In this document: in pieces, positions 27,608-27,782 of the stretch
How the letters are laid out: each line of letters starts with the position of its first letter
Numbering within the stretch: position 1 is the stretch's first letter
From: a virus
Lineage: Duplodnaviria > Heunggongvirae > Uroviricota > Caudoviricetes
IMG/VR virus record: IMGVR_UViG_2529292912_000010
DNA: 35,529 nucleotides
Strand: one strand, 5' to 3'
Position numbers and translations under genes: made by a program
Notes under the pieces: model-generated
What the model saw: only the letters and a program-made list of their open reading frames with translations
The model's database searches: none
What the model was told of the DNA's origin: nothing

Positions 27608-27782
27608 TCAGATTAAATTAATCTTGACATCATAGCTTTCAAGACCCGTCATTTTTTCCCGTGCGGTAAACTGAATACTGGTAACTTCTTTCCCGGTCTT
27701 TTTCTTAAGTTCAATAATTTTTTTGTTATATATTCAGAAATATCTGCTTCTGCTTTTGTTTTAAGTTTTCAATATTCATCAT
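27608..27782 (-). pseudogene. gnsB: gnsB-like small gene, apparently disrupted by frameshifts
   Basis: Three successive reading frames translate as MNIENLK / KTKAEADISEYITKK / IELKKKTGKEVTSIQFTAREKMTGLESYDVKINLI, each aligning with consecutive parts of the 57-aa GnsA/GnsB sequence as I recall it. No single frame is open from ATG to stop. Confidence 0.45.

Follow-up and report, generated by a model that had tools for sequence, protein, structure and literature searches.

The question raised by this locus is why a short prophage gene should be spread over three reading frames, and whether the disruption belongs to the viral genome or to the sequence that was deposited for it. The locus lies in IMG/VR record IMGVR_UViG_2529292912_000010 (Caudoviricetes), and the whole 35,529-nucleotide stretch of DNA that was analyzed is referred to here as the window. 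The initial annotation, made from the letters alone, described a gnsB-like gene in three frames, with frame changes at A-rich runs (about 27758-27764 and a T7 run at 27718-27724), and offered a pseudogene, a homopolymer sequencing error, and slippage-dependent expression as explanations without ranking them. Our data confirmed the three-frame arrangement by translation, alignment, and a match to Pfam family PF08178, and the similarity to GnsB holds in a real alignment to intact gnsB. The proposed positions of the frame changes were essentially right, the exact runs being those given in Table 1.

Translation of the minus strand between 27590 and 27800 yielded three consecutive pieces of one protein, with frame 0 reading MMNIENLK(QKQKQIFLNI*), frame 2 reading (L)KTKAEADISEYITKK, and frame 1 reading KIIELKKKTGKEVTSIQFTAREKMTGLESYDVKINLI*. 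The open reading frame (ORF) as written thus ends after 18 to 19 codons, with the remainder in the two other frames, and nowhere does one ORF run unbroken through the ~57 codons. Alignment, translation, and Pfam all identified the minus strand from 27779 to 27608 as gnsB of a Qin-type prophage. With the copies from ECONIH5 (WP_001019606.1), 1368KP, and K-12 MG1655 (b1550) as alignment references, the DNA matched all three base for base, minus two bases; restoring these two bases gives a 174-nt ORF identical to K-12 gnsB and encoding the 57-amino-acid GnsB. The repaired protein matched PF08178 (GnsAB_toxin) with an E value of 3.1e-35 and 120.3 bits against a cutoff of 27, covering profile positions 1 to 54 of 54, and the 37-amino-acid piece in the last frame scored 77.8 bits by itself. 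Because the DNA is identical but for the two missing bases and the repaired protein matches PF08178 from end to end, the resemblance can be taken not to be one of chance. Judged by its sequence, the locus is an ordinary gnsB whose identity is not in doubt.

The surroundings are equally familiar. The DNA is the same as that of K-12 gnsB except for two 1-nt deletions and the neighbors are the same, as expected of an ortholog. The minus-strand gene order places gnsB in the ydfO-gnsB-ynfN-ynfR-ynfQ-cspI neighborhood, the cold shock gene island belonging to an Escherichia coli lambdoid prophage of the Qin type, in which ynfO and ydfO are on the plus strand and gnsB, ynfN, ynfR, ynfQ/ymcF, and cspI are on the minus strand, with the lysis genes coming next. 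The gnsB start codon as annotated elsewhere is the second of two ATGs (at 27779), an additional in-frame ATG lying one codon upstream at 27782, and the TGA stop codon occupies 27608-27610. A hairpin resembling an intrinsic terminator lies just beyond the 3' end of the gene, and a promoter scan around gnsB found nothing. The cspA thermoregulator family (RF01766) has two full-length Rfam matches on the minus strand, at 28425-28809 and 31318-31710 (116 and 159 bits), which span the leaders and starts of cspI and cspB.

Table 1. Positions in the window of gnsB, its two frame breaks, and neighboring features
Feature	Positions	Strand	Sequence as written	Comparison or remark
gnsB coding region as written	27608..27779	-	172 nt; three frames	174 nt when intact
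First gnsB frame break	27759..27762	+	T4 (mRNA-sense A4, ...CTTAAAACAAAAG...)	T5 in intact genomes
Second gnsB frame break	27718..27724	+	T7 (mRNA-sense A7)	T8 in intact genomes
ynfN (76-aa form), frameshifted by a one-base homopolymer contraction	27951..28180	-		From alignment
Third private deletion (A8 to A7)	28158..28164	+	A7	A8 in the same haplotype elsewhere
Intrinsic-terminator-like hairpin	27560..27581	-	9-pair stem, T-rich tail TGTTATATTT	Just 3' of gnsB

The nature of the disruption became clear from comparison with the nearest genomes. We aligned positions 27000-28700 of the window with ECONIH5, STK78-E, and ER1709 and then with 1368KP, F467, MG1655, and a DH5alpha assembly. Over 1,701 bases, the window differs from ECONIH5 by no substitutions and by exactly three 1-nt deletions, all of them in homopolymers: T8 to T7 and T5 to T4 in gnsB (A8 to A7 and A5 to A4 in mRNA sense) and A8 to A7 in ynfN. 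The nearest genome, 1368KP, could be followed over 30.6 kb (window positions 4470-35115), with 11 substitutions and with these three deletions as the only indels. For positions 1-4700, the alignments to several genomes were exactly 4,700 bases long (99.9% identity), with no net length difference, and the three deletions are thus the sole indels over about 35 kb relative to the nearest genomes.

A span of 441 bp holds all three deletions, and it lies where GC content is lowest in the window (0.34 to 0.36). In a model in which three indels independently hit the 181 homopolymers of at least 5 bases, either uniformly or with steep weighting by length, the probability of finding all three within 441 bp was about 0.001 to 0.002. 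Chance hits that are independent of one another, be they mutations or errors, account poorly for this clustering, and something local was at work. Several candidate causes could be set aside. An assembly that is error-prone in general is rejected by the other ~35 kb, which carry no indels relative to the nearest genomes, and because the rest of the window is free of indels, a local patch is needed. Polishing failure induced by a repeat is unsupported, as megablast placed the 90-nt gnsB segment at a median of one site per genome, and gene conversion from a paralog such as gnsA is rejected by the lack of accompanying substitutions. Nor did we see a mutator signature: the 11 substitutions relative to 1368KP comprise 5 transitions and 6 transversions and do not show the transition-dominated spectrum of mismatch repair loss, although this test carries little weight, the substitutions being unpolarized.

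The same comparison yielded several observations on the prophage as a whole. The 1368KP prophage carries an IS66-family (ISKpn24-like) insertion in its tail fiber gene (positions 2554-4889 there), which the window lacks at about position 4470, and the two prophages are nearly identical apart from it. Similarity to 1368KP stops at 35115, beside hokD and rem, and the last 414 bases of the window (35116-35529) match IS3-family elements that are multicopy in E. coli genomes, so that the right end is probably occupied by an insertion sequence. At the tail fiber/pinQ end of the prophage, Rfam family IS009 (RF02111, 221 bits) matches the minus strand at 3343-3541. Finally, ydfR (DUF1327; window ~30050-30360, 1368KP 30554-30864) is annotated as frameshifted in both 1368KP and F467, and the window, having no indel relative to 1368KP there, presumably carries the same frameshift. 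Because that frameshift is common to several assemblies, ydfR is more likely to be a real pseudogene.

The third deletion, in ynfN, falls in the 5' part of the 76-amino-acid form and removes its N-terminal extension, and the ORF list for this gene shows only a 63-amino-acid GTG-initiated ORF at 27951-28142. The 96-nt haplotype around the deletion was found exactly in no complete genome, the best hits being 97 nt long with one gap. We therefore considered and rejected the view that the contraction is a common natural allele of the window's haplotype: the best hits are all A8, and the A7 tract of K-12 MG1655, where YnfN is annotated as 51 amino acids, lies on another haplotype that is one single nucleotide polymorphism away. 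In F467, the adjoining A7 run of ynfN is shortened to A6 instead. The 5' end of ynfN is thus a spot that is polymorphic in homopolymer length, with inconsistent PGAP annotation.

How often the gnsB deletions occur elsewhere was addressed by a survey of alleles. The allele with both deletions, represented by a 90-nt segment that includes both runs, was found exactly in 0 of 5,426 complete E. coli genomes, and exact-pattern scans for it returned 0 copies in the metagenome, IMG/VR, and GTDB-representative collections. The intact allele was exact in 1,307 complete-genome records, and the allele with the T7 contraction alone was exact in 38 complete genomes from scattered, unrelated strains. A second pattern, allowing either length at both gnsB runs, was scanned in the collections, where 143 contigs were tallied. 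Intact copies numbered 43 in the metagenome, 86 in the IMG/VR, and 4 in the GTDB collection; T7-only copies numbered nine in all (8 among 94 contigs from IMG/VR and 1 among 45 from metagenomes). T7-only copies are found on several haplotypes, which are 95.5 to 99.6% identical to the reference; because these haplotypes differ, the T7 contraction recurs independently. The T4-only allele was represented by one sequence, metagenome contig CYGL01000091.1, a divergent haplotype with 95.9% identity to the reference and with other small indels outside gnsB. No T9 allele was present among the 143 collection contigs tallied (run lengths of 6 to 10 were considered). One contig with the exact E. coli gnsB segment, JAGZPX010000007.1 (3248-3314), is labeled as part of a Veillonella parvula metagenome-assembled genome and was probably misbinned.

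Individual assemblies share parts of the pattern. The A8-to-A7 change in gnsB is common to the window, ER1709 (NZ_CP030240.1), STK78-E (NZ_CP162185.1), and DH5alpha (NZ_CP045741.1), and the copies in such public assemblies are labeled "frameshifted" by PGAP or called as truncated ORFs. In the 38 other complete genomes whose gnsB is altered, the A7 change is the only one, in contrast to the pair in the window. A T4 run combined with other deletions was seen elsewhere only in the DH5alpha assembly, which, like the window, also has the A5-to-A4 change. The exact combination of deletions in the window is unique.

The DH5alpha assembly, from a K-12 derivative, provided us with an instructive control. 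PGAP flags frameshifts in its ydfO, gnsB, and ynfN, the ynfN tract itself being that of MG1655. Compared with MG1655 over 36 kb, NZ_CP045741.1 lacks a single base in eight places, every one of them in an A/T homopolymer; seven lie within 540 bp of ydfO-gnsB (MG1655 equivalent, 1637223-1637761) and the eighth lies in cspB (1641452), with about 200 other homopolymers of at least 5 bases in the region unaffected. The cluster of seven includes exactly the two gnsB sites that are shortened in the window, and both sites are intact in MG1655 and C600. Unlike the copy in the window, gnsB of DH5alpha has lost a third base, and a further four deletions lie upstream of it, in ydfO and the ydfO-gnsB spacer. 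Seven single-base deletions in 540 bp of DH5alpha, a laboratory strain, are not credible biology but an uncorrected patch of long-read consensus, which looks to have created false pseudogenes of ydfO, gnsB, and cspB. The window shows this signature too, in a milder form and in an overlapping stretch.

A second control was the T8 tract in the rzpQ coding sequence (window 29437-29444), which was T7 in 6 complete genomes and T8 in 1,048. Two of the six assemblies with rzpQ T7, VE-V11-M and UTAK-1, are also among the 38 with gnsB A7, which suggests that homopolymer contractions follow particular assemblies rather than loci. The A8-to-A7 change is about 5 times commoner at gnsB (38 versus 1,307) than at the rzpQ control (6 versus 1,048).

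Of the three explanations that had been left unranked at the outset, homopolymer error is the one we favor, because the deletions are private, confined to homopolymers, and clustered with the deletion in ynfN, and because the same gnsB sites are shortened in the DH5alpha error patch; a pseudogene is less likely, and slippage-dependent expression is unsupported. Specifically, we assign a probability of about three in four to the reading that the gnsB split is an unpolished patch of assembly or sequencing error and is absent from the genome itself. Which gene this is, the nature and positions of the three deletions, their privacy and clustering, and the recurrence of the two gnsB deletions in another assembly are matters of direct observation, from which, rather than from reads, we infer a technical and not a mutational cause. 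In this scenario, a short, very AT-rich patch at about 27.7 to 28.2 kb would have kept homopolymer undercalls (T8 to T7, T5 to T4, and A8 to A7) of the kind made by long-read consensus, which polishing left in place; gnsB would probably be intact in the real genome, and normal GnsB would be made. The differences from close relatives at this locus are indeed 1-nt homopolymer changes only and private to the assembly, and the same gnsB sites are miscalled in NZ_CP045741.1 with relatives intact. Undercalls from long-read or hybrid assembly likewise take the form of single-base losses in A/T runs, in low-GC patches, that are private and place frameshifts in conserved genes; this likeness is a match of pattern only. 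Because the rest of the window is clean and the assembly is not generally error-prone, a local "polishing hole" would be required, the backing for which is the likeness to the DH5alpha assembly. Against error as the whole explanation, the A8-to-A7 change could be real in some strains, and some of the contigs that carry it are perhaps derived from short-read data.

Such considerations give some room to the reading that gnsB is a genuine, very recent pseudogene, in which two independent slipped-strand deletions struck its A8 and A5 runs and a third struck ynfN. Only the N-terminal peptide of 18 to 19 amino acids could then be made, and the loss of gnsB, as dispensable prophage cargo from a family annotated as toxin-like, would be tolerated or even favored; what is known of GnsA and GnsB comes solely from overexpression phenotypes, which makes loss plausible. 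A/T runs of 8 bases are real hot spots for slipped-strand mutation, and the occurrence of the A7-only allele on several haplotypes (38 of ~1,345 complete genomes, 8 of 94 IMG/VR contigs, and 1 of 45 metagenome contigs), the single T4-only allele on CYGL01000091.1, and the real polymorphism of the ynfN tract length in K-12 MG1655 are all consistent with mutation at these homopolymers. We nevertheless consider the pseudogene unlikely. It calls for three independent rare events in 441 bp, while 1.7 kb shows 0 substitutions and some 35 kb is otherwise free of indels; the resulting combination is found nowhere else in the genomes and collections surveyed; and the identical pair of gnsB deletions sits in an obvious error cluster of a K-12-derivative assembly whose relatives are intact.

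Two further readings would give the split a function. The excess of A8-to-A7 changes at gnsB over the control T8 of rzpQ and the recurrence of the A7 allele on different haplotypes are what might be expected if the A8 run were a contingency (phase-variable) tract, the window representing the OFF state with a later, neutral second frameshift. However, AT-rich context and assembly-linked errors explain the excess equally well, given that 2 of the 6 rzpQ-T7 assemblies also carry gnsB A7; the expected expansion to T9 is missing among the 143 collection contigs tallied; and the second break falls at an A4/A5 run, which is not a switchable tract. We regard this reading as very improbable. The more specific conjecture that the A8 tract is a slipped-strand ON/OFF switch for a prophage-borne membrane lipid modulator or toxin-like peptide, with the copy in the window locked OFF and carrying a secondary frameshift besides, is highly doubtful as well; if true, it would explain why the A7 OFF allele occurs at about 3 to 9% on several haplotypes, some 5 times as often as the contraction of the control 8-mer. 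As for programmed recoding, in which ribosomal frameshifting or transcriptional slippage would produce full-length GnsB from the split gene, the one point in its favor is that both breaks fall at A runs in the mRNA sense. Yet no homolog keeps the split arrangement (0 of 5,426 genomes and 0 in the three collections), relatives being almost all single intact ORFs, and a single 57-codon message, differing from intact gnsB solely by two lost bases, would have to be corrected by +1 nt at two separate places. The sites themselves are poor. At the first, the A run is just A4; its context, CUUAAAACAAAAG, is not among the recognized slippery heptamers, and an A4 run is too short for efficient transcriptional slippage. 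The second is A7, where intact gnsB reads ACA AAA AAA ATT in the mRNA sense, and by what is established about slippery sites, neither site provides a recognized motif or an A/T run of at least 9. With an arrangement conserved nowhere and such poor sites, programmed or slippage-dependent expression of gnsB is effectively excluded.

The favored reading, a local patch of error, makes quality control the chief value of this locus, as taking the sequence at face value would lead to the annotation of a gnsB pseudogene or, worse, of recoding. The ydfO-gnsB-ynfN stretch of Qin-type prophages draws homopolymer miscalls in public "complete" genomes, a lesson that is based on the 38 gnsB records with a single frameshift and on the seven-deletion cluster in one DH5alpha assembly. 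Pseudogene calls at ydfO-gnsB-ynfN consequently need read support before they are used for evolutionary or pangenome inference. If the frameshifts are real after all, they amount to the unremarkable loss of a dispensable prophage gene.

With respect to known systems, the window neither adds to nor departs from the established biology of GnsA and GnsB. According to the accounts of Sugai et al. (2001) given in PMC10607373 and bioRxiv 10.1101/2024.03.27.586906, cells that overexpress gnsA or gnsB contain more unsaturated fatty acids, and overexpression of either gene also acts as a suppressor of fabA6(Ts) and of the cold-sensitive phenotype of a secG null mutant. In Pfam and PGAP, the GnsA/GnsB family is labeled as the toxin of a toxin-antitoxin pair. 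The closest characterized counterpart of the locus is gnsB of the K-12 cryptic prophage Qin (b1550; 57-amino-acid GnsB), which has the same sequence except for two bases and belongs to the same family, PF08178, and which shares with the window the neighbors ynfO, ydfO, ynfN, ynfR, ynfQ, cspI, and rzpQ. Unlike the K-12 gene, gnsB as written in the window is 172 nt long and is twice thrown out of frame, and the prophage that carries it is far more complete than K-12 Qin, with full sets of head, tail, and terminase genes.
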